Shown one piece after another: positions 1 through 13,472 of a stretch of DNA of 64,000 nt. The position numbers and the translations under genes were made by a program. The notes below the pieces were generated by a model. It had not been told where the DNA came from. It saw nothing but the letters and a program-made list of their open reading frames with translations, and did not search any database. How positions within the stretch are numbered: position 1 is the first letter of the stretch; each line of letters opens with the position of its first letter. This DNA comes from Centroscyllium fabricii (Eukaryota): the NCBI GenBank assembly GCA_051313645.2, contig JBNRSN020000194.1:310001-374000 (forward strand), written 5' to 3'.

Positions 1-3000
1 CGACTGAGAATACTCGCAACACCCACCCCTGACTGAGAATACTCGGAGCCCTCGCTCCTGACTGAGAATAATGGGAGCACACACCCCTTACTGAGAATGC
101 CTGGATGACACACCCGTGACTGAGAATACTCCGTGCACCCGTCCCTGACTGAGAATACTCGGAACACTCGCCCCTGACAGAGAATACTCGGGGCACTCGC
201 CCCTTACTCAGAATAATCAGAGCACCCGCCCCGACTGAGAATACTTGGAGCACCCACCCATGACTGAGAATAGTCGGGGCACTCGCCCCTGACTCAGAAT
301 ATTCAGAGCACCCGCCCCTGACTGAGAATACTGAGAGCACCCGCCCCTGACTGAGAATACTCAGAGCACCTGCCCCTGTCTGAGAATACTCAGAGCACCC
401 ACCCCTGACTGAGTATACTGAGAGCACCCGCCCCTGACTGAGAATACTTGGAGAAACCTCCCCTGACTGAGAATACTCGGAGCACCCGACCCTGACATAG
501 AATAATCGGAGCACCCGCCCCTGACTGAGAATACTCGGAGTACACGCCCCTGACTGATACTACTCGGAGCACCCGCCCCTTACTCAGAATTACATTGGCA
601 CCCGGCGTGACTGAGAATACTCGGAGCTCCCACCCCTGACTGAGTATACTCAGAGCACCCGCCCCTGACTGAGAATACTCGGAGCTCCCGCCACTGACTG
701 AGTATACTCAGAGCGCTCCGCCCCTGACTGAGAATACTCGGAGAACCCACCCCTGACGGAGAATACTTGGAGCACCAGCCCCTGACTGAGAATATTCGGA
801 GCACTCGCCCCTGACTGTTGATACTGAGAGCACCCGAACCTGACTGAGGATACTCAGAGCACCCACCCCTGACTGAGAATACGGAGAGCACCCGCACCTG
901 CCTGAGATTACTGAGAGCACATGCCCATGACTGAGAATAATGAGAGCACCCGCCCCTGACTGAGAATACTGAGAGCACCCGCCCCTGACTGAGAATACTG
1001 TGAGCAACCGCCCCTGACTGAGAATACTCGGAGCACACGCCCCTAACTGAGAATACTGAGAGCACCAGCCCCTGACCTGAGAATACTGAGAGCACCCGCC
1101 CCAGCCTGAGAATACTCCGTACACCTACCCCTGACTGAGAATACTCGGTGCACCCGCCACTGACTGAGAATTTTCGGAGCACCCGCCCCTGACTCAGATT
1201 AATCGGAGCACACACAATCATGACTGAGAATACTCGGAGCACTCACCCCTGACTGAGAATACTGGGAGCACACACCCCTTGCTGAGAATGCTCGGATCAC
1301 ACACCCGTGACTGAGAATATTGGAGCACCCGTCCCTGACTGAGAATACTCGGAGCACTCGCCTCTGAAAGAGAATACTCGGGGCACTCGCCCCTGACTCA
1401 GAATAATCAGAGCACTCGCCCCTGACTGAGAACACTCGGAGCTCCCGCCCCTGACTGAGAATACTGAGAGCACAAGCCCCTGACTGAGAATATTGAGAGC
1501 ACCCGCCCCTGACTGAGAATACCCGGAGCACCCACCCCTGATTGAGAATAGTGAGAGCACCCGCCCCTGACTGAGAATACTCGGAGTACCCGCCCCTGAC
1601 TGAGAATACTCGGACCACCCGCCCCTGACTGAGAATGGTTGGAGCACCCGCACCTGACAGAGAATACTCGGAGTACCCGCCCCTGACTGAGAATACTCGG
1701 AGTACCAACCACTGACTGAGAATTCTCAGAGCACTCGCCCCTGACTGAAAATACTCGGAGTACACGCCCCTGACTGAGAATACTCGGAGTACCTGCCCCT
1801 GACTGAGAATACTCGGCGCGCCCGCCCCTGACTGAGAATACTCAATGCACCCGCCCCTGACTGAGGATACAGAGTGCACCCGCCCCTGACTGAGAATACT
1901 CGGAGCACCTGCCCCTGAATGAGAATACTCGGAGTTCCCGCCCCTGACTGAGAATACTCGGAGTACCCACCACTGACTGAGAATAATCAGAGCACTCGCC
2001 CATGACTGAAAATTCTCGGTGTACACTCGCTTGACTGAGAAAATTCGGAGTACCTGCCCCTGACTGAGAATACTCAATGCACCCGCACCTGAATGAGGAT
2101 ACTGAGAGCAACCGCCACTGACTGAGAATACTCGGAGCACCTGCCCCGAATGAGAATAATCGGAGCACCCGCCCCTGACTGAGAATACTCAAAGCACCCA
2201 CCTCTGTCTGAGAATACTGTGAGTACCCGCCTCTGACTGAGAATACTCGGGGCACCCGCCCCTGACTGAGAATATTCAAAGCACCCGACAGTGACTAAGG
2301 ATACTGAGAACAACCGCCCCTGACTGAGAATACTTGGAGTTCCCGCCCCTAACTAAGGATACTAGGAGCACCAGCCCCTGACTGAGAATACTCGGAGCAC
2401 CCACCCCTGACTGAGAATACTCGGAGCACCTGCCACTGACTGAGAATACTGAGAGCACCAGCCCCTGACTGAGATTACTCGGAGCACCCGTCCCTGACTG
2501 AGAATACTGAGAGAACACACCCCTGACTGAGAATACTCAGAGAACCCGCCCCTGACTGAGAATACTCAGAACACCACCCCGCTGACTGAGAATACTGAGA
2601 GCACCCGCCCCTGACTGAGAATACTCGGAGCACCAGCCTCTGACTGAGAATATTTGGAGTACCCGCTGTTGACTGAGAATACTCGGAGCACCCGCCCCTG
2701 ACTGAGTATATTCAGAGCACCCACACCTGACTGAGAATACTCGGAGTACCCGCCCCTGACTAAGAATTCTCATGGCACCCGTTCCTGACTGAGAATACTA
2801 GGACTACCCGCCCCTGACTGAGAATACTCAGAGCACCTGCCCCTGACTGAGAATACTAGGAGCACCCGTCCCTGACTGAGAATACTCGGAGCACCCGCCT
2901 CTGACAGAGAATATTAGGAGCACCTGCCCCTGACTGAGAATACTGAGAGCACCCGACACTGACTGAGAATACTCGGAGCTCCCGCCCCTGACTCAGAATA

Positions 3001-3384
3001 CTTGGAGTACCCGCCCCTGACAGAGAATACTCGGAGCTCCCGCCCCTGTCTGAGAATACTTGGAGCACACACCCCTGACTGAGAATACTCGCAGCACACA
3101 CCCCTGACTGAGAATACTTGGGTCACCCGCCCCTGACTGAGAATATTCAGAGCACCTGCCACTGACTGAGAATACTTGGAGCACCCGTCCCTGACTGAGA
3201 ATATTCGGAGCACCCACCCCTGACTGATAATACTTGGAGCACCCGCCCCTGACTGAGAATACTTGGAGTTCCCGCCCCTGATTGAGAATATTCGGAGCAC
3301 CCACCCCTGACTGAGAATACTGAGAGTAACCGCCCCTGACTGAGGATACTGAGAGCACCCGCCCCTGACTGAGAATACTCAGAG
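1..3384. repeat. 29-bp tandem satellite array, left of the proviral insertion
   Basis: Continuous head-to-tail monomers of consensus CCCGCCCCTGACTGAGAATACTCGGAGCA (29 nt), usually with a few substitutions each. No unique spacers. Confidence 0.98.
3381..3384 (+). repeat. Target-site duplication, left copy (AGAG)
   Basis: ...GAGAATACTC AGAG|TGTAAGG. Removing the element and one AGAG restores the satellite sequence seen intact at 20083-20086 and 15791-15794. Confidence 0.93.
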
Positions 3385-3471
3385 TGTAAGGTCGCAATAT
3401 TCCCTGTTAAATTAGATCCACAAAGACAAGAAACGAAGGATGGAGTATACACATTTTATTTTATTTGGACA

Positions 3472-3795
3472 ATGGCAGACAAGACAGGCTGCGGCCTGAT
3501 CAGAGAAAAGGGGCCTCCAAGATGGCCGCCGGACCACATGGCACAGTACAAACCGAAACCAAAAACCCAACTCGAAAAGCCCGCGAAGAAACCAGACATA
3601 AAGGCACTGTTAAACCTGGAAATAAATAGCCTGCCTTTTAGAGGCCGATTAGCCCGACAAAGAAATGCACCCAGTTTAAATAATCACCCAAAACAACTGC
3701 AGAAACGAAGCAGCTGGTCCGTTCAGCCAGCTACAGAAATTGTATACCCTTCCAGCAGAAAGCGATTAGCACCCTTGAAAACAAAGGGGCTCTAA
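3472..3795 (+). CDS. Possible U3-encoded basic protein (107 aa), hypothetical
   Basis: Kozak ACAATGG; K/R/P-rich; no recognisable homology. Truncated in the 3' LTR by CGA>TGA at 11983. Confidence 0.2.
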   Translation: MADKTGCGLIREKGPPRWPPDHMAQYKPKPKTQLEKPAKKPDIKALLNLEINSLPFRGRLARQRNAPSLNNHPKQLQKRSSWSVQPATEIVYPSSRKRLAPLKTKGL

Positions 3796-3923
3796 CCTGA
3801 GAAGTTAGAGCCGCCATCAAACTATTACCGGCAGGCTTGGCTAGACAAAAGGGGTGCTATAACCGCTTTCCACACACAATACAGGCTCTAATGGGAAAGA
3901 CATTAGGCAGTTCGACTTTGGGG

Positions 3924-3944
3924 TATAACTGGTAGGACTTTATA
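3924..3944 (+). promoter_or_regulatory. Candidate LTR TATA-like boxes
   Basis: GGGTATAACT (TATAAC 3924-3929) and CTTTATACAG (3939-3944). Motif match only. Confidence 0.4.
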
Positions 3945-4059
3945 CAGTTCGCTCTCTTGAAAAATCTCTTCATCTCGGACTCCCTGGAGGAGGGGGGTTT
4001 GAATCTCTGGTAATAGAATCTCTTGGAAAGCGGTTGGAAATTCTTCTCTTATGACTTAG

Positions 4060-4149
4060 GACTCGTGGAGGCGACCTCTTGAAGCGGTGAGGTCTCTCTT
4101 GGCTCTTGGAATCGACTCGTGGAGGCGACCTCTTGAAGCGGTGAGGTCT
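4060..4149 (+). repeat. 36-bp direct repeat in the LTR, each copy with an internal hairpin
   Basis: GACTCGTGGAGGCGACCTCTTGAAGCGGTGAGGTCT at 4060-4095 and 4114-4149, with GACCTC/GAGGTC arms. Also present in the 3' LTR. Confidence 0.9.
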
Positions 4150-5013
4150 AGCAGTGACTTTGGGTGGGCTGTCTTTCTCGAAGACTCCAGTTCAGCTTTC
4201 TGGGCGCAGGGCAAGCAGGGTGAAGGCTCTGGCAGGACAGCAGAGTTGGGTCAGGGCAGTATCGCATCAGAAAACCATTGCCGGTGAGGTAGTTAGTTGC
4301 TGAGGCCCATTAGCGAAGCAAAAGTGAGTGAGTTAGAACAAGACTGGTTGCCGTTGGCTCGAGAGAAACCATCATTCAAAGAGTGGGAGAACAATTAGGC
4401 TAGCAGCCCGTTACAGTTCGGCTTGAGAGGGCAGGATCGGCATACCCCAGGGTCCGGTTCAGCCAGGGAGACGGTGTGGTTGGTGCGAGGAGATCGAGCA
4501 GCCTCGAGGAATCCGTCCGGGACCAGCCCGAGCAGGAGCGACCGCCGCCAAAAGGGAGAAAACAACGAGTGGACTCCCGAATCTTCCACAGCCACGTGAC
4601 GACCGACGCTGCAGCCGAAGAAACGAAGGACTTCGTAGCAGAACCCGAGTATTACCGAGTGGTGAGCATGTGCATTGATCCTACACACCTGGACATAGCT
4701 AGGCAATAGAGGGAAGGGTGGTTCGTTTGGGGTGTAATTTTAGAGTCATTGCCCCGATTTACGATGTGTCGTGCGTTCCCCATCCTATGAGTTGTTTGTG
4801 TATGTGCATATGTATATATATCTATTTGGGAACAATTGTTGGTGTTCCATACTGTGTTGACCCGAGAAAATACAACCTAACTGCTGTAGATATATCTCTT
4901 GGTGTAATAAACCGTTATCCTTGCTGCTGTAAATATATCTCTTGGTGTAATAAAAACCTTCCAACTTTACAAACTTTTATTCGAGTCAATAGTCTGAGTC
5001 CAATCGGCATCCA

Positions 5014-5034
5014 TCTCTCTCTCTCTCTCTCTCT
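5014..5034 (+). repeat. (TC)n microsatellite / polypyrimidine tract in the LTR
   Basis: 21-nt alternating TC run, the same length in both LTRs (13291-13311). Confidence 0.9.
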
Positions 5035-5193
5035 TCCTGCACCTAAGTCCAGCGTCTAGAACCGTAAAGAGTGAGCGATTCGAACCGCTCGCGGGGGAGG
5101 AGGTTATTGCGCGAGGCCTAGCGGACTGCTAGCGCAAGGCAGTAACGGACCCCAAGTCGTACAGTAAAATATACGGCGCACGCTCCTTACAGA

Positions 5194-7116
5194 ATGGCGA
5201 CCACAGCAGGACGCTGGCAGCAGGAGAGAGATCTATTGGACTCAGCGTTGAATAAAAGAAGCGTAATGGAGGAAAGGATTGCCAACTATGTATTTAGTAA
5301 AGTAAACCTAACAAAGCAGTGGATTGGGGACCTGTTGGCAGACAAAGGCCCACTGGATGCAGCTATCCGTTGGACGGGTAGCAAGGGGCATAAAAAGGCC
5401 GTAGAGAAAGCCGTATGGCTTATGTGTTATAAAAGACAGGTCCAGCTTTCGGACCAGGTGATTGCGGAGCAGACCGCGCAGATAAAAGGGTTGGTTTTAG
5501 AAGTGGAGGAAAAGGTCTCAGGGGGGCAGCGGTTAATCACCGCGCTAGAGGCTCTAAATAATGAGCGCCAGGTGAAGACCAACCGCCACGAAGCTAGGGT
5601 TGAGCTCCTAGAGAGACAAGTCGTAGAGGCCATGTCAAGTGAAGGGAAGCTCAGGGAAAGCTGCGTCCGCCTAAGTGGCCAATTGAAGGCACAGGAGGAG
5701 GATTTACTGGGGATGAGGGCAGCTTACAAAATGTCCCTCGAGGCCAAATATGAGGACGCCGATCATAGCGCCTGTTTAAAGGAGATTCATGACCTCAGGG
5801 AGGCCCTGAACAAGTCAAATGGTCTGGTGTGCCTCATCGACCCATCGGTGGGTGAGGTAAAGGTAGCTCAGGAACCCCCGAAGCCAAAGTTAAGGAGGAG
5901 GGCGCCGGAGGCACCAGCCCCCGCGCTCCCCGCGCGATCACCCCACTATACGCAAGCATGGGAGAAAGGGGACAAAGAGGAGGTGGCGGCAAATGTTCCC
6001 AAAGTGGGGAATCCAGACCCGGCACCCATGTGTCCGGTTCGAGAGATGAGGCGGGGTCCCGACACTGAGGCTGGGGATCCCGGGCCCGTCCTGAATGAGG
6101 TTATAGTGCCCCATAGCTCGCAACAGATAAGGAGCATGATAGGGCATTTCAAGAAGCTGTCCGCAGCAGGCGATCCGTCCCTGCATTTTAGGGAGGTCGA
6201 ACAGGCCGCAGCAATTAACGGCTGTGACGAAGGGGAGCAAGCCAGGATGTTGCTTTTTTCGTTGGATAGCTCTATTCTTCAGTGTCTCTCCGACGAGAGC
6301 AAAAGGGGGGAGAATTGTTATAACGACCTGCGGGACGAGGTCCTAGAAATATTAGGGATGGACGATGAAGGTCCGTTTGTAAGGCTGGGTAGGACCGTGC
6401 AGATGGAGGGAGAACCCCCACGGGTTTTCGCCGGGAGGCTGTGGCCTGTGTATCAGCGCAGCTGCCCAGATGTACCTGCACGGGCTGTTTTGCGCGATGC
6501 CGGGAGAGCCCAGTGGCTCCGGTGTATCGTTGCCAACAGCCTACCCGCCGTTAGAGAGCAGGCGAAGGTGTGGTTTGACACCACCGATGCTCTAACCACA
6601 GAGGAGACGGTCCTCAACCGACTCACGGTTGGGTATAAAAATACCAGAAGTTCGGTGATGCATTGCGATAAGGGGAAGGTGTATGCGACTAACGCAAACG
6701 CCCCAGCGCAGAGAGAGTGGTATCAGGAGGGGGGCAACCCGGGGCAGTCTACATGTCATAGATGCGGGAAGGCAGGCCACTGGCGCAGAGACTGTAGAGC
6801 CCCGTGGAGGGAGGTCAAGGAAAGAGCTCCCGCAGCCCCAGCCCGAGCACCCACTCCCACAGGAGGTGCCGGCGCCACTCTAAGTCCCGAAACAATTGAG
6901 TCCATGCTGGAAGCCATGAAGTTTTATATGACTTCCCAGGGGAAGGTAGCCCCAACCCGAGCACCCGCTCCCACAGGAGGTGCCGGGGCAACCTTAAGTC
7001 CCGAGACGATTGAGTCCACGCTGGGGGCCATGAAGTTGTATATGGCTTCCCAGGGGAAGGCAGCGGTGGCCACCGGTTCCGCAGGCACCGCAGCCCCTCA
7101 CGAGGAAACCCAATGA
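5194..7116 (+). CDS. gag: Gag polyprotein (640 aa): N-terminal coiled coil, Pro-rich linker, capsid-like region, single CCHC zinc knuckle, duplicated C-terminal 38-aa unit
   Basis: Intact ORF directly after the LTR with strong Kozak context (AGAATGG). CHRCGKAGHWRRDC knuckle at 6754-6795. Confidence 0.93.
   Translation: MATTAGRWQQERDLLDSALNKRSVMEERIANYVFSKVNLTKQWIGDLLADKGPLDAAIRWTGSKGHKKAVEKAVWLMCYKRQVQLSDQVIAEQTAQIKGLVLEVEEKVSGGQRLITALEALNNERQVKTNRHEARVELLERQVVEAMSSEGKLRESCVRLSGQLKAQEEDLLGMRAAYKMSLEAKYEDADHSACLKEIHDLREALNKSNGLVCLIDPSVGEVKVAQEPPKPKLRRRAPEAPAPALPARSPHYTQAWEKGDKEEVAANVPKVGNPDPAPMCPVREMRRGPDTEAGDPGPVLNEVIVPHSSQQIRSMIGHFKKLSAAGDPSLHFREVEQAAAINGCDEGEQARMLLFSLDSSILQCLSDESKRGENCYNDLRDEVLEILGMDDEGPFVRLGRTVQMEGEPPRVFAGRLWPVYQRSCPDVPARAVLRDAGRAQWLRCIVANSLPAVREQAKVWFDTTDALTTEETVLNRLTVGYKNTRSSVMHCDKGKVYATNANAPAQREWYQEGGNPGQSTCHRCGKAGHWRRDCRAPWREVKERAPAAPARAPTPTGGAGATLSPETIESMLEAMKFYMTSQGKVAPTRAPAPTGGAGATLSPETIESTLGAMKLYMASQGKAAVATGSAGTAAPHEETQ
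5195..5212 (+). promoter_or_regulatory. Primer-binding site, probably tRNA-Arg(UCG)
   Basis: TGGCGACCACAGCAGGAC lies 3 nt after the 5' LTR. It begins with TGG (complement of CCA) and resembles the complement of vertebrate tRNA-Arg(UCG) 3' ends as recalled. The tRNA identity needs checking. Confidence 0.8.
6842..7064 (+). repeat. Tandem 114-bp-period (38 aa) duplication at the gag 3' end
   Basis: RAPTPTGGAGATLSPETIESMLEAMKFYMTSQGK / RAPAPTGGAGATLSPETIESTLGAMKLYMASQGK. Confidence 0.92.
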
Positions 7117-7119
7117 CTA
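7111..7119 (+). promoter_or_regulatory. Candidate gag-pol stop-codon readthrough site CAA-UGA-CUA
   Basis: gag and pol share a frame and are separated only by TGA at 7114-7116. The 3' context CUA is a known leaky-UGA context. Confidence 0.75.
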
Positions 7120-10100
7120 AGACCCGCGCTGCCCATTTACCTGTGCCCACTCCGTTACGATGCATGGAGGAGACCTCTGGTGGAAATGGAGGTGGAGAGA
7201 CAGGAGGGGAATTATCTGTTGGATACGGGGGCCTCATGCACCGTGATCCATACAGAGAAGCCGTTTAATTCCCCAATGTCCACCGGAGTCCCTTTTGCAT
7301 TAGCAGGGTTTACGGGCAAGGAACAGGGGGGCGCGCGCTCTAGGCCACTCTCCATTCAGTTAGGAGCGCTCCACACCACTTGGGAGTGCATCTTGCTGAA
7401 ATGGGAAGAAGGAGGTGGCAGAGGTATAGTAGGAGCAGATTTTCTGGGAGCACACGGGATCATGATCGACTTAAGGAACCACTGTTTATGGGCAGCCGAA
7501 AGTGGAAGAGGTGAAGTTGTGGTCATAGGGGAGGAAGAAGAGAAGGGGACCCTATGCACCATGAAGCCGTCCGGAGGTTACGACCTCGATAGTCTGTCCA
7601 AGGGGGTTCCGGCCGACATGCAGGCGGCCGTAACGTGGAATATAAACGCCTTTGCGACCCACAAGCACGATTGCGGGAGGGTCTTAGGGTTTGAGGTTAG
7701 CGTACAGGGGGATCCCATGTCCCGACCCCAGAAACAGTATAACTTCCCTAAGGAAGCGGAGTCCGATCTGGAGACAGCGATGTCTTCACTGGTGCGGCAG
7801 GGCGTGTTGAGGCCGATAGCCACCCATGTGAACTCTCCGTTGTGGCCCGTACGGAAGCCAGACAACTCATGGAGAGCCACGGTGGATTATCGGGTCCTCA
7901 ACAGTAACATCCCTGCCTGCGCACCCACGGTGGCAGCAGTTGCCGACCTGATCGGGAGTATTCCCGCTTCCGCCACGGTGTTTACGGTGTTGGATATTTC
8001 CAACGGGTTTTGGTCCATCCCGCTGCGGAGGGAGGATCAGTACAAGTTTGCCTTTACGTTTAAAGGGCAGCAGTACACGTGGAATTGTTTGCCGCAAGGC
8101 TTCCACAACAGCCCCAGTATTTTCCACCAGTGCATGGCAGGGAGTTTAAAGGAGTTTAGTCAGCCCAGTCAGATAGTGCAGTACGTGGACGACTTACTCC
8201 TGTTCACAGACACAAGGGATGAGCACTTGCCATTGCTAGGCGAGCTGCTGGAATTACTGGCTAGGAAGGGTTTTAAAATAAACCCGAAGAAGGCACGGAT
8301 TGGCCAGACAGAAGTAAAGTTTCTGGGTCTGACCATCCGCGCGGGGGAAAGGGCCATAGATAAGGTCCGAAGGGAGTCGGTACAGGAGCTACCGATCCCG
8401 ACCACCGTAAAGGGTGTGAGGTCCTTTTTGGGATTGACCGGCTATTGCAGAGACTTCATAGAGGACTATGCAGCCACAGCAGCTCCGCTGCTCCGACTCT
8501 TACATAAGGGAGTTGGGTGGTCATGGGATGAGGGCTGCCAGGCGGCGTTTGAAAAGTTGAAAAGGGACTTGCAAACCGCGCCAGCCCTGGGGGCCATAGA
8601 GGGGGGGAAGGAGTTTTCCCTGGAGGTAGCAGCCGGCGAGGACAGCTTGAGCGCGGTGCTGCTCCAAGAGCGGCACGGCAAGCTGCGACCGGTGGTGTAT
8701 TCCTCAAGGGTACTCACGGAGGTAGAGAGGGGGTTCTCCAACTGCGAACGGCATCTCTTAGCCACGCATTGGGCCGTGAAGAGATCATTAATCTTCACGG
8801 GAACCTCTCCCATTACTCTCCTCACCCACCACACGCCCACCAGGATGCTTCTGGATGGGAGGATAAAGGATGGGACCGTGAGCAGCGCGAGAATTGCGCG
8901 CTGGACTCTTCTGTTGTCCCAAATGGATTTAAAAGTGGAGGGTTTGTGCGAGCCTAAGCTCGCAGCAAATTTGATGTACCCCGGAACGACCCATCGGTGT
9001 TCCGTGGAGGGGGTATGGGAGGTGAACATAGGTCTGCGAGCCGGGATACATCCCACGGGCCGCGAGATCTATGTTGATGGTTCCAGCACGGTGGTGGCTG
9101 GCGAACGACTCACGGGCTGCGGGATTTTTGACCCTACGGCAGACATTGCCTTGGCGGTTAAGCTTCCCCGCACCATGAGCGCGCAGCAGGCCGAGCTGTC
9201 GGCGGTGGCGTACGTGGTAACCCACCCCGAGATCTTCCCAACCCCGTACACAATTTGCTCTGATAGTATGTTTACGTGCAACTCGTGCACAGAGTATCTG
9301 GCCATATGGTCACGTCGCGGGTACACTTCCACGGACGGGCGGCCATTAACGGTAAAGCCCTTGTTGGAGAAGATCCTAGCGGCAGTAGGGGAAGAAGGGG
9401 AGATCTTCATCCACAAGGTGAAGGCTCACTCTTCCACGGAACCACGTGGGGGAGGCAATCAGCGGGCGGATGCGCTGGCCAAGGAGGGTGCTCGTGAAGG
9501 CACTTTCTGGGACCCCTACGGGTCCGGACCTGTGGCAGCGATCCGGGACAAGGAGGGGAACCGCCCCAGGGTTCCCCTGCCTTTGGATCTCAAAACGGTC
9601 CAAAACCAGGATCCCGTTTTAAAAGCTGTCCTCAAAGCTATTAGTGAGGACAAGCAGGTAGAGGGCCCATACAATAGGGCGACCCTCTCCGTTAAGGAGG
9701 GTATGTTATTCAGGGAGGAACAGTGGGTTGTGCCGCAGCAGCACAGGAGGGAATTTCTCCAATTGGCCCACGAGGGTCCAGGAGCAGGGCACCCCGGGCC
9801 AGAGGTTACGTGGCAACGGGTGGATATAAACCAATGTAAAATGTATAAGTCGGGCACGCAGGGGTCGACCACAGGGGCAAGCCCTGTGAGTAGGAACGCC
9901 CAGCCAAGTGCAGGACCACAGGTCGCACAGGCAGGCAAAGTAGCCTGCGTGAAAGGAGAGGCCCCGATGGAGGAGAGGAGGGTCTCTCGTGCTGTGTGGG
10001 ATTCGGATGGGGAGGAGCCGGACCAACACGACCAAGTGTTGGATCTGATGGACCAACACGACCAAGTGTTGGATCCGAGTGGCCAACCCGACCAAGGGTT

Positions 10101-10824
10101 GGACCTGATTGACCTATGCGACCCAGTGCTAGAGTCAATCACAGGGGAGGAGGAGGGGTCGGAGGACGGGGGTTCCGTTCTCGACTCGAATGCCGACGAG
10201 GTAGGGATAGCGGGCGGAGACTCACCACCTGAGGAGATAGGTGAGGTGAGGTCAGAAGCCGCAAGAGATCCCAGTCCCGGGGAAGCGAAGCTGAAGGAGG
10301 GAGGGTCGGTGCTGGCAGCTGTGAAGGAGTCACAGGCTGCAGCACGATCCGGCCCGGCCTTCAGTTCGTCGACGAGGCGAGAGGAGGGAGCGTCGATGCT
10401 GACAGATGTGACGGGGTCACAGGCTGTAGCACGACCTGGCCCGGTCCTCAGGTCGTCGACCCAGGGGGCTCTCGGTTCCAGGGAAGCGAAGCTGGAGGGA
10501 GAGGGGTTGGTGCTGGCAGCTGTGAGGGAGTCACAGGCTGCAGCACAACCTGGCTCGGTCCTCAGTTCGTCGGCCCAGGGAGCAGTACCTAAAGGCACCC
10601 TCCGTCGATCGGAAAGGGTACCCCCGCCCAGGAAAGCTTGGCCAGAACCGTCATATGCCCTCAGGAACAGGAAAAGCCCCCGCAAAAGGATAATTATCCA
10701 CCCCCGACAAGCAGCACCAGGCTGCGGAGAATTAAAAGCAGCGACAGGCTGCGGGGAACCAAAGGGAAGGGTCAGCAAGGCACCGCCATGGGGAGCGGCC
10801 CACTACGACCCTGACAGGGGATAG
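7117..10824 (+). CDS. pol: Pol polyprotein: aspartic protease, reverse transcriptase, degenerate RNase H tether, RNase H, internally deleted integrase with long low-complexity tail
   Basis: Open from 7117. PR: WRRPLV..LLDTGAS (D 7222), IVGADFL. RT: YVDD at 8182-8193. Tether: ~8520-8930. RNase H: YVDGS (D 9076), AELSA, SDS, HS, GNQRAD (D 9469). IN zinc-finger His at 9769 and 9790, but no CxxC and no DDE core. Confidence 0.93.
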   Translation, partial: LRPALPIYLCPLRYDAWRRPLVEMEVERQEGNYLLDTGASCTVIHTEKPFNSPMSTGVPFALAGFTGKEQGGARSRPLSIQLGALHTTWECILLKWEEGGGRGIVGADFLGAHGIMIDLRNHCLWAAESGRGEVVVIGEEEEKGTLCTMKPSGGYDLDSLSKGVPADMQAAVTWNINAFATHKHDCGRVLGFEVSVQGDPMSRPQKQYNFPKEAESDLETAMSSLVRQGVLRPIATHVNSPLWPVRKPDNSWRATVDYRVLNSNIPACAPTVAAVADLIGSIPASATVFTVLDISNGFWSIPLRREDQYKFAFTFKGQQYTWNCLPQGFHNSPSIFHQCMAGSLKEFSQPSQIVQYVDDLLLFTDTRDEHLPLLGELLELLARKGFKINPKKARIGQTEVKFLGLTIRAGERAIDKVRRESVQELPIPTTVKGVRSFLGLTGYCRDFIEDYAATAAPLLRLLHKGVGWSWDEGCQAAFEKLKRDLQTAPALGAIEGGKEFSLEVAAGEDSLSAVLLQERHGKLRPVVYSSRVLTEVERGFSNCERHLLATHWAVKRSLIFTGTSPITLLTHHTPTRMLLDGRIKDGTVSSARIARWTLLLSQMDLKVEGLCEPKLAANLMYPGTTHRCSVEGVWEVNIGLRAGIHPTGREIYVDGSSTVVAGERLTGCGIFDPTADIALAVKLPRTMSAQQAELSAVAYVVTHPEIFPTPYTICSDSMFTCNSCTEYLAIWSRRGYTSTDGRPLTVKPLLEKILAAVGEEGEIFIHKVKAHSSTEPRGGGNQRADALAKEGAREGTFWDPYGSGPVAAIRDKEGNRPRVPLPLDLKTVQNQDPVLKAVLKAISEDKQVEGPYNRATLSVKEGMLFREEQWVVPQQHRREFLQLAHEGPGAGHPGPEVTWQRVDINQCKMYKSGTQGSTTGASPVSRNAQPSAGPQVAQAGKVACVKGEAPMEERRVSRAVWDSDGEEPDQHDQVLDLMDQHDQVLDPSGQPDQGLDLIDLCDPVLESITGEEEGSEDGGSVLDSNADEVGIAGGDSPPEEIGEVRSEAARDPSPGEAKLKEGGSVLAAVKESQAAARSGPAFSSSTRREEGASMLTDVTGSQAVARPGPVLRSSTQGALGSREAKLEGEGLVLAAVRESQAAAQPGSVLSSSAQGAVPKGTLRRSERVPPPRKAWPEPSYALRNRKSPRKRIIIHPRQAAPGCGELKAATGCGEPKGRVSKAPPWGAAHYDPDRG
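10021..10580 (+). repeat. Coding repeats in the Pol C-terminal tail
   Basis: Four 30-bp units (DQHDQVLDLM-like) at 10021-10140 and three ~30-aa units (VLAAVKESQAAARSGP-like) at ~10281-10580. Confidence 0.85.
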
Positions 10825-11649
10825 GTAGGCCGCCCGGGAGAGGCGGCACTGTATATAATGAAGAAAAATAAGTTTGGTAGTGTCAAGGGAGTAGCCCGAA
10901 TTAAGTTTCAATTTTGTTAAAGGTAAAGGGGAGTGTTTAGGTAATATGGGATCTGTCCAGGAGGCGTGCACATCTCACCACAGCCAGGCGCTCTTGGGAG
11001 GCCGGCAACCCCTTTGTTTGATTACAGAACCCAGAGAGGCGGGGATTCTGATGACGTGTGCGGGCATCAAAGATGGACTGGCCTGCCGGGGCCACACCGG
11101 GGAGTAAGGACGGCTGGGAATGGACCCAATGGAGCATCCCAGCACGTCGGAATCTGCTTGTGGAGAGACTTGGTTTTATGTGCCCCGGATCAAGACCATC
11201 GCACCCAGGACCGGCGCCATCATCGGTAAAAGGACTTACTTCCGTTAAGGGATAGGAAGATCCCAGCGAGCCGATGGTGGTGGCTGCAGAAGACCGCCAG
11301 AACACTGTACGGACTTTGGGACAAATGGGGGGATTGGTGAAGGGAAATGTGTGTGTTTATATGTTCCGGATGGTTGTGTGATGTCTTTCAAGTTAATAAA
11401 TGATGTGAACAGGTGGAGACGAAGGCATCGGCCTGGCAGACGTGGAAGGAACCAGGAGGTGTAAGCCATGGTTGTGTAAATATACGATTGCCCAGGGTAA
11501 AGGCAATGCGAGGTTGATCAAAGGGAATGGGAACCGCATGTGTCATGGGGCAAGAGTTAATTTAGGTAACCAGGAGAGTTGAGGTGTGGAGAATCGGGAA
11601 TCTTGCTCAACCTTTCTTAATTGATTCGCTAAGCAGGGTTATGCTAATC

Positions 11650-11661
11650 AACAGGAGGGAC
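11650..11661 (+). promoter_or_regulatory. Polypurine tract (short)
   Basis: AACAGGAGGGAC immediately before the TG of the 3' LTR. Confidence 0.7.
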
Positions 11662-13468
11662 TGTAAGGTCGCAATATTCCCTGTTAAATTAGATCCACAA
11701 AGACAAGAAACGAAGGATGGAGTATACACATTTTATTTTATTTGGACAATGGCAGACAAGACAGGCTGCGGCCTGATCAGAGAAAAGGGGCCTCCAAGAT
11801 GGCCGCCGGACCACATGGCACAGTACAAACCGAAACCAAAAACCCAACTCGAAAAGCCCGCGAAGAAACCAGACATAAAGGCGCTGTTAAACCTGGAAAT
11901 AAATAGCCTGCCTTTTAGAGGCCGATTAGCCCGACAAAGAAATGCACCCAGTTTAAATAATCACCCAAAACAACTGCAGAAATGAAGCAGCTGGTCCGTT
12001 CAGCCAGCTACAGAAATTGTATACCCTTCCAGCAGAAAGCGATTAGCACCCTTGAAAACAAAGGGGCTCTAACCTGAGAAGTTAGAGCCGCCATCAAACT
12101 ATTACCGGCAGGCTTGGCTAGACAAAAGGGGTGCTATAACCGCTTTCCACACACAATACAGGCTCTAATGGGAAAGACATTAGGCAGTTCGACTTTGGGG
12201 TATAACTGGTAGGACTTTATACAGTTCGCTCTCTTGAAAAATCTCTTCATCTCGGACTCCCTGGAGGAGGGGGGTTTGAATCTCTGGTAATAGAATCTCT
12301 TGGAAAGCGGTTGGAAACTCTTCTCTTATGACTTAGGACTCGTGGAGGCGACCTCTTGAAGCGGTGAGGTCTCTCTTGGCTCTTGGAATCGACTCGTGGA
12401 GGCGACCTCTTGAAGCGGTGAGGTCTAGCAGTGACTTTGGGTGGGCTGTCTTTCTCGAAGACTCCAGTTCAGCTTTCTGGGCGCAGGGCAAGCAGGGTGA
12501 AGGCTCTGGCAGGACAGCAGAGTTGGGTCAGGGCAGTATCGCATCGGAAAACCATTGCCGGTGAGGTAGTTAGTTGCTGAGGCCCATTAGCGAAGCAAAA
12601 GTGAGTGAGTTAGAACAAGACTGGTTGCCGTTGGCTCGAGAGAAACCATCATTCAAAGAGTGGGAGAACAATTAGGCTAGCAGCCCGTTACAGTTCGGCT
12701 TGAGAGGGCAGGATCGGCATACCCCAGGGTCCGGTTCAGCCAGGGAGACGGTGTGGTTGGTGCGAGGAGATCGAGCAGCCTCGAGGAATCCGTCCGGGAC
12801 CAGCCCGAGCAGGAGCGACCACCGCCCAAAGGGAGAAAACAACGAGTGGACTCCCGAATCTTCCACAGCCACGTGACGACCGACGCTGCAGCCGAAGAAA
12901 CGAAGGACTTCGTAGCAGAACCCGAGTATTACCGAGTGGTGAGCATGTGCATTGATCCTACACACCTGGACATAGCTAGGCAATAGAGGGAAGGGTGGTT
13001 CATTTGGGGTGTAATTTTAGAGTCATTGCCCCGATTTACGATGTGTCGTGCGTTCCCCATCCTATGAGTTGTTTGTGTATGTGCATATGTATATATATCT
13101 ATTTGGGAACAATTGTTGGTGTTCCATACTGTGTTGACCTGAGAAAATACAACCTAACTGCTGTAGATATATCTCTTGGTGTAATAAACCGTTATCCTTG
13201 CTGCTGTAAATATATCTCTTGGTGTAATAAAAACCTTCCAACTTTAAAAACTTTTATTCGAGTCAATAGTCTGAGTCCAATCGGCATCCATCTCTCTCTC
13301 TCTCTCTCTCTTCCTGCACCTAAGTCCAGCGTCTAGAACCGTAAAGAGTGAGCGATTCGAACCGCTCGCGGGGGAGGAGGTTATTGCGCGAGGCCTAGCG
13401 GACTGCTAGCGCAAGGCAGTAACGGACCCCAAGTCGTACAGTAAAATATACGGCGCACGCTCCTTACA
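11662..13468 (+). repeat. 3' LTR (1,807 bp)
   Basis: Direct copy of 3385-5191. About 9 substitutions found by eye and no indels seen. Confidence 0.97.
13183..13231 (+). terminator. Tandem polyadenylation signals in the 3' LTR (5' LTR copies at 4906 and 4949)
   Basis: AATAAA at 13183 and 13226. Each ends one copy of a duplicated 31-bp unit CTGCTGTARATATATCTCTTGGTGTAATAAA. Confidence 0.65.
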
Positions 13469-13472
13469 AGAG
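13469..13472 (+). repeat. Target-site duplication, right copy (AGAG)
   Basis: CCTTACA|AGAG TACCCGCCCC. Confidence 0.93.

Follow-up and report, generated by a model that had tools for sequence, protein, structure and literature searches.

Retroviruses and LTR retrotransposons make their integrase from RNA before reverse transcription and carry it in the particle; the enzyme requires only the LTR tips of the cDNA, and TG...CA ends together with a 4-bp duplication are the traces that a DDE integrase leaves. Deleted proviruses and helper-dependent LTR families are both already known. In mouse IAP I-delta-1, ETn and HERV-H, common internal deletions have spread through trans complementation; these deletions take gag-pol or RT parts and are not known to remove integrase alone, and their multi-locus status is established, whereas the integrase deletion described here is known from one copy, found in a 64-kb stretch of DNA from Centroscyllium fabricii (the window, in whose own numbering all positions are given). 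A word-matching search of a partial literature library found no described family lacking integrase alone.

Several described systems come closest to this copy. For HIV-1, the available text of one study reports 395 deleted proviruses in which integrase is the site of a second breakpoint hotspot, ascribes the deletions to aberrant strand transfer, and cites work that found short repeats at 40% of deletion junctions (PMC12657518). These proviruses resemble the window copy in their large internal deletion, integrase-region breakpoints and particle-supplied integrase, but they are somatic and derive from an exogenous virus, their junctions often carry short repeats where the window copy has one shared base, and for the window copy a later host deletion is also possible. 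BHIKHARI Bik-1 and Bik-2 of zebrafish, described in the available part of a preprint as non-autonomous relatives of lokiretroviruses, are likewise LTR elements of fish that inserted precisely and recently, encode no integrase and have a long Gag with an N-terminal coiled coil (bioRxiv 10.1101/2024.03.25.586437). Unlike the window copy, which keeps PR, RT and RNase H, they are without the entire pol, and they are proven multi-copy families (393 Bik-2 insertions) rather than a single deleted locus. Lokiretroviruses and Odin elements, as far as the accessible portions of the two papers go, share with the window element a tether plus a second RNase H and an integrase end of the form W-x-H-I-N-Q, have relatives annotated as NYNRIN-like, and occur in hosts that include frogs and coelacanth; the Odin retrotransposons likewise lack env (PMC7947760, PMC9040795). 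In contrast, Lokiretrovirus has an env related to Mononegavirales fusion proteins, which is absent from the window element, the RT motifs of the window differ from those of the published Loki consensus proteins (PMC7947760, available text), and Loki was recorded in 0 of 6 cartilaginous fish genomes (PMC7947760, Fig. S1). The frog and coelacanth NYNRIN-like Pol proteins have the same domain order and integrase end as the window element, but they possess a whole integrase and no long tail, and they do not form one resolved clade with it in the RT tree.

The window consists of a 29-bp satellite array that carries a single LTR-element insertion at 3385-13468 (Table 1). Comparison of the window with itself returned two long repeats, which are the LTRs, and the sequence at the LTR start occurs twice in the window against zero expected occurrences. 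Paired LTRs, TG...CA ends, a short target-site duplication, gag, and a pol encoding PR, RT and RNase H identify the insertion as an integrase-inserted LTR retroelement; the AGAG on both sides of the TG...CA LTRs bears out the statement of an earlier sequence-only reading that the insertion was integrase-made. The gag stop codon TGA is followed directly by pol in the same frame (7114-7119), presumably a read-through layout. Two bases past the LTR, at 5194, gag has its first ATG, which overlaps the putative primer-binding site; a skate protein, P0178, which is 59% identical to window Gag over 599 aa, begins with the same four residues, and a 117-bp direct duplication (88%) near the gag end (6834-7064) is missing from the alignment with it. 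No env-sized ORF is present in the 837-bp 3' region, where the longest plus-strand frame has 94 codons, and no joint or large loose end was found in the 3' region of the family among the public-run rows listed. No tRNA genes were found within the 64-kb window. The satellite (1-3380 and 13473-64000) combines its 29-bp unit with longer-range repeats, and its minus strand yields many spurious open frames.

Table 1. Features of the LTR element, in window coordinates.
Feature	Position	Strand	Basis
Target-site duplication, left copy, AGAG, within the 29-bp satellite	3381..3384	+	sequence
5' LTR, 1807 bp, TG...CA	3385..5191	+	self-comparison
Putative primer-binding site, begins TGG, 3 bases past LTR	5195..5212	+	role inferred from position
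gag ORF, 640 aa, one CCHC zinc knuckle, TGA stop	5194..7116	+	ORF list, Pfam
pol frame, 1235 codons, in frame directly 3' of gag stop	7117..10824	+	ORF list
Aspartyl protease, LLDTGA	7165..7320	+	Pfam RVP, slightly below cut-off
Reverse transcriptase, YVDD	7849..8337	+	Pfam RVT_1, E 3.9e-35
Tether (degenerate first RNase H)	8524..8922	+	Pfam RT_RNaseH_2 + RT_RNaseH
Second RNase H, retrovirus-type	9064..9492	+	Pfam RNase_H, E 2.8e-19
Integrase zinc finger, first half: both histidines, zero cysteines	9730..9822	+	Integrase_H2C2 model 1-30/59
Deletion junction, ~933 nt of integrase missing	9821..9824	+	public contigs, relative P0002
Integrase C-terminal domain, last residues	9826..9849	+	comparison with P0002/P0003
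Acidic, internally repeated tail, in frame with pol, no Pfam match	9850..10824	+	comparison with P0003
3' region, 837 bp, short purine tract at end	10825..11661	+	sequence
3' LTR, 1807 bp, TG...CA, 9 differences from 5' LTR, 6 of them CpG transitions	11662..13468	+	LTR alignment
Target-site duplication, right copy, AGAG	13469..13472	+	sequence

The window copy is without most of its integrase gene, and the deletion is real. The pol frame nevertheless stays open to its end, and Pfam matched window Pol to positions 1-30 of the 59-position Integrase_H2C2 model only (Pol 872-902), with no match to rve; four relatives, P0001, P0002, P0004 and P0005, each have H2C2 whole (1-58/59) together with rve (4/4). 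P0001, the closest full Pol found and drawn from Logan, is 81% identical to window Pol over 882 aa, and the match ends at Pol residue 903, past the counterpart of which P0001 continues into the cysteines and the catalytic core. P0002, a protein from the shark Heptranchias perlo that NCBI names as NYNRIN-like, spans both sides of the junction and has 312 residues between them compared with 1 in the window, so that ~311 codons (933 nt) are missing. With P0002 as reference, the missing part includes the CxxC, both core aspartate motifs, the glutamate motif and the integrase GPY, and a tblastn search for it in the whole window gave a best match of only E 0.6. The sequence-only reading had proposed that two integrase ends were joined by an in-frame deletion that removed the CxxC and the D-D35-E, and these comparisons agree with it; its statement that no GPY occurs holds for the integrase motif, but a GPY tripeptide other than that motif does occur at Pol 850, 5' of the zinc finger. 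The reading had also taken INQCKMYK for the closing motif of an integrase C-terminal domain. This motif recurs in P0002 and P0003 behind a W-x-H, and P0003, which itself begins within the integrase C-terminal domain, matches the 332 post-junction residues from the very first one (E 3e-41); the motif call was therefore right, and the acidic tail is native to the family. Since the integrase HHCC, DDE core and C-terminal domain are not whole, the copy does not qualify as an autonomous element. The open frame is no sign of selection, because a length that keeps the frame has a one-in-three chance and RT and RNase H lie upstream.

The tail itself comprises ~325 codons fused to the integrase end; it is present but shorter in P0003 and absent in the frog relatives. 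On the minus strand, a stop-free frame of 428 codons without a Pfam match (9516-10802) runs across the junction and may be a by-product of G+C-rich repeats. Other copies of the family in X7 and X14, two of the public sequencing runs considered next, skip 90-100 bases within the repeated tail (10041-10142), and length variants thus exist in the family.

All or part of the stretch is contained in 19 public sequencing runs from 8 studies, four of which (X17, X14, X3 and X7) were examined; integrase-whole sequence of the family is present in 4/4, the runs not being tied to the window's own genome. In X17, one contig fits 9262-9821 with 5 differences in 560 sites (99.1%) and continues for 231 letters unlike the window, and a second has 649 letters unlike the window before it fits 9824-10861 with 8 differences in 1038 (99.2%), the extra letters together amounting to 880 of the ~933 missing. 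Sequence in X3 and X7 also departs from the window at 9821/9824 and continues, and X14 sequence enters the match before 9829; the break was placed at 9821-9824 from these departure points. The X17 contig does not bear out the GGGTG microhomology that had been suggested at the junction, as the word at 9818-9822 has no second copy at the distal edge of the deleted segment. At the precise breakpoint the two sides have a single base in common, and a word of 4 bases comes back with an offset of four (X17 loose ends). Depth in the X17 junction bin is 10.1, and the two undeleted contigs alone give 10.10, so that nothing bridges the junction in this run; no X17 sequence joins 9821 to 9824 at a depth of ~10, where contigs report presence and not absence. 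In X7, a shallow run (depth ~5) with the next bin uncovered, no bridge is listed. The family is very abundant in X14 (10523 pieces) and X3 (4472 pieces), for which 20 of 555 loose-end rows and 32 of ~15000 piece rows were listed; junction-bin depth is ~14% and ~24%, respectively, lower than the average over the remaining 20 pol bins, within bin-to-bin scatter. No depth in X14 or X3 carries the window's letter at 9331 or 11247, and these runs therefore seem to be without this locus. Two protein searches for the junction returned three matches (1/4592 and 2/206 candidates), none of them a fused-junction protein, and an exact look-up of window Gag and Pol in the collection found neither (0/2). 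The junction pattern was found 0 times in JGI metagenomes, where a protein scan gave 82 pattern matches and 0 confirmed; these metagenomes are a poor place to look for it because the family itself was not found there.

The nearest known kin of the window copy is undeleted, because the X17 contigs share the window's letter at 9549, 10459, 10581 and 10625, where 55-97% of X14/X3 depth differs. X17 and the window differ at 13 of 1598 sites, which exceeds the 4.0 expected from one-sided drift (P 0.0003) but is compatible, if borderline, with drift in both sequences (8.0 expected, P 0.06). The X17 sequence is not the direct parent, because it departs from the window at 9577, 9892, 10005 and 10197, four sites at which some of the X14 depth has the window's letter; the distance between the window and X17 leaves room for a young deleted sub-lineage. 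The window copy shares minority letters with ~20-45% of X14 depth at several sites and therefore belongs to a sub-lineage. Among the 40 difference rows listed (of 115), 6 stand against the window in 95% or more of the depth of both X14 and X3, compared with 7.1 differences expected in 2861 bp from LTR drift alone, and this leaves little room for a long-lived deleted lineage. No significant decay at CpG emerged (4 of 8 A/T sites, P 0.22) from a list of 11 internal differences counted as near-fixed by a loose rule, 95% in either X14 or X3, which 5 of them fail in X14.

The LTR divergence of 0.50% corresponds to 3.6 million generations at the shark rate of 7e-10 per site per generation, to 1.8-17.8 million over the published interval of that rate, and to 0.6-5.9 million without the six CpG transitions (rate and interval from the available part of PMC10587355); the 2.2e-10 per year assumed in the accessible text of PMC4422223 gives ~11 million years. 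The LTR-based age leaves ample time for a deletion after insertion. The insertion had been called recent, and the term holds only in a relative sense, for LTRs that are 0.5% diverged and yet ~0.6-18 million generations old.

To place the family, we compared its Pol with distant relatives and built trees of RT. Among distant relatives, Pol proteins of frogs and coelacanth (P0004, P0005 and P0008) match best; they are annotated as NYNRIN-like or Gypsy integrase-like 1 and are 41-43% identical over PR-RT-RH. The nearest named proteins, from shark and skate, point to a cartilaginous fish as host. In window Pol, Pfam recovers the tether and second RNase H, as in lokiretroviruses. The dual RNase H and the frog and coelacanth matches had suggested a lokiretrovirus label, which we rejected on RT motifs and RT trees. 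Four back-translated words from P0004 had 0 matches in the available part of the PMC7947760 supplement, and the RT motifs of the published Loki proteins mark a separate 7-row clade among the RT matches, a clade labelled by motifs from that supplement and not by named sequences in the tree. The FastTree analysis used 140 of 144 RT stretches (4 shorter than 225 aa were dropped), and the IQ-TREE analysis 42 hand-picked rows of RT only, chosen by likeness to the query and including no named foamy or FLERV sequence. In the 42-row tree, the window and its kin fall on the retrovirus side, which includes the Pol of walleye epidermal hyperplasia virus 1, with a 100/98 branch between them and the rows that are Gypsy-like or have the Loki motifs; the kin form an unresolved basal group rather than a supported clade, and FastTree on 140 rows agrees. 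Among these 42 query-like rows, the RT is closer to canonical retroviruses than to Gypsy or Loki, as is expected of Retroviridae in the wide sense. Taken together, the domain content and the RT tree suggest that the family is a dual-RNase-H lineage, env-less as far as seen, that lies outside the published lokiretroviruses and near the retrovirus base. The lineage may be unnamed; possibly it corresponds to the frog-shark XtrFLERV-CmiFLERV group in the available text of PMC5512871.

With a probability of roughly 0.6, we favor a one-off deletion, which would make this a lone defective copy in a family that is integrase-competent and very abundant, the loss falling about equally to reverse transcription and to later host deletion, in the million-plus generations since insertion. 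An integrase-whole RNA would have been translated into Gag and Gag-Pol, packaged and reverse-transcribed, and integrase already inside the particle, needing only the LTR tips, would have joined the cDNA ends to the satellite. The integrase piece would have been lost once, through an RT template jump in that round or a host deletion afterwards, and the copy would since have drifted as a silent insertion, able to integrate only with integrase from elsewhere. A cDNA that lost the integrase gene during synthesis would thus be inserted with normal ends and duplication; such a deletion, arising while the cDNA was made in an integrase-holding particle, is a standard third explanation beyond the helper-dependent subfamily and the post-insertion deletion proposed from sequence alone. 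The tension once seen between a missing integrase and a precise insertion disappears, because the enzyme is supplied by the particle and close relatives retain its gene; a precise insertion of a copy without the gene is then expected. Kin and drift lean toward a one-off event. Against it stand the single base of junction homology, which is weak for a template jump, the frames for Gag, PR, RT and RNase H, still open as a self-using subfamily would need, and the consideration that, should an amplified deletion variant exist, a randomly drawn copy would more likely belong to it than stem from a one-off event.

About half as probable, in our judgment, is a non-autonomous subfamily in which a single deletion was propagated by copies that supply their own Gag, PR, RT and RNase H and borrow integrase in mixed particles. 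Both frames are open and the RT and RNase H motifs intact, the cis signals (LTR ends, putative primer-binding site and purine tract) are kept while an essential enzyme is missing, and the minority letters shared with part of X14 speak for sub-lineage membership; integrase-whole sequence, from which helpers might come, occurs in all four runs, in two of which the family is very abundant, and helper-dependent LTR families are known in fish from Bik-1 and Bik-2, which lack pol (bioRxiv 10.1101/2024.03.25.586437, available part). However, no second junction was found in X17, among the X7 sequence listed, in the protein searches or in JGI metagenomes, which together make a weak test, and the nearest sequence known still has its integrase; each copy having drifted by ~0.25%, its frames would be expected to stay open even in the absence of selection, and the frame-keeping length again has its one-in-three chance. 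A fuller form of this idea, slightly less probable, has an amplified subfamily, within an env-less, deep-branching retrovirus-like lineage of cartilaginous fishes, that is without the integrase core only, retains Gag, PR, RT and both RNase H domains, and parasitises the integrase of whole copies. An assembly error at a locus that is in fact whole would be far less probable still. The element does lie within a long array of the 29-bp satellite, its family has a high copy number, and no junction-bridging read or contig was seen in the runs examined; but mixed copies cannot create a junction absent from every molecule, the join is clean, without N and not between repeats, the rest of the copy hangs together, its LTRs and interior both drifting as a single locus would, and the four runs seem to be without this locus, so that the missing bridge says little. 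Least credible of all is an insertion made without the family's integrase core, whether through a novel chemistry or through the joined zinc-finger half and C-terminal stub. These two are in frame, with a long tail behind them, but every catalytic motif is missing, the tail also occurs in an integrase-whole relative, and the TG...CA ends and 4-bp duplication are the signature of a DDE integrase.

If the one-off deletion that we prefer is correct, a single deleted copy matters little, since retroviral replication and genome decay can be expected to leave such copies behind. A helper-dependent subfamily would be a variant of a known strategy; if many loci were to share the junction, integrase alone would have been outsourced while RT stayed under selection, and nature would have supplied an example of trans complementation for integrase alone, in a lineage intermediate between lokiretroviruses and canonical retroviruses. 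This lineage seems to be without a settled name. An env-less family that is abundant in at least two sampled genomes and lies near the retrovirus base bears on the gain and loss of env, and the family itself may be a better lead than the deletion.
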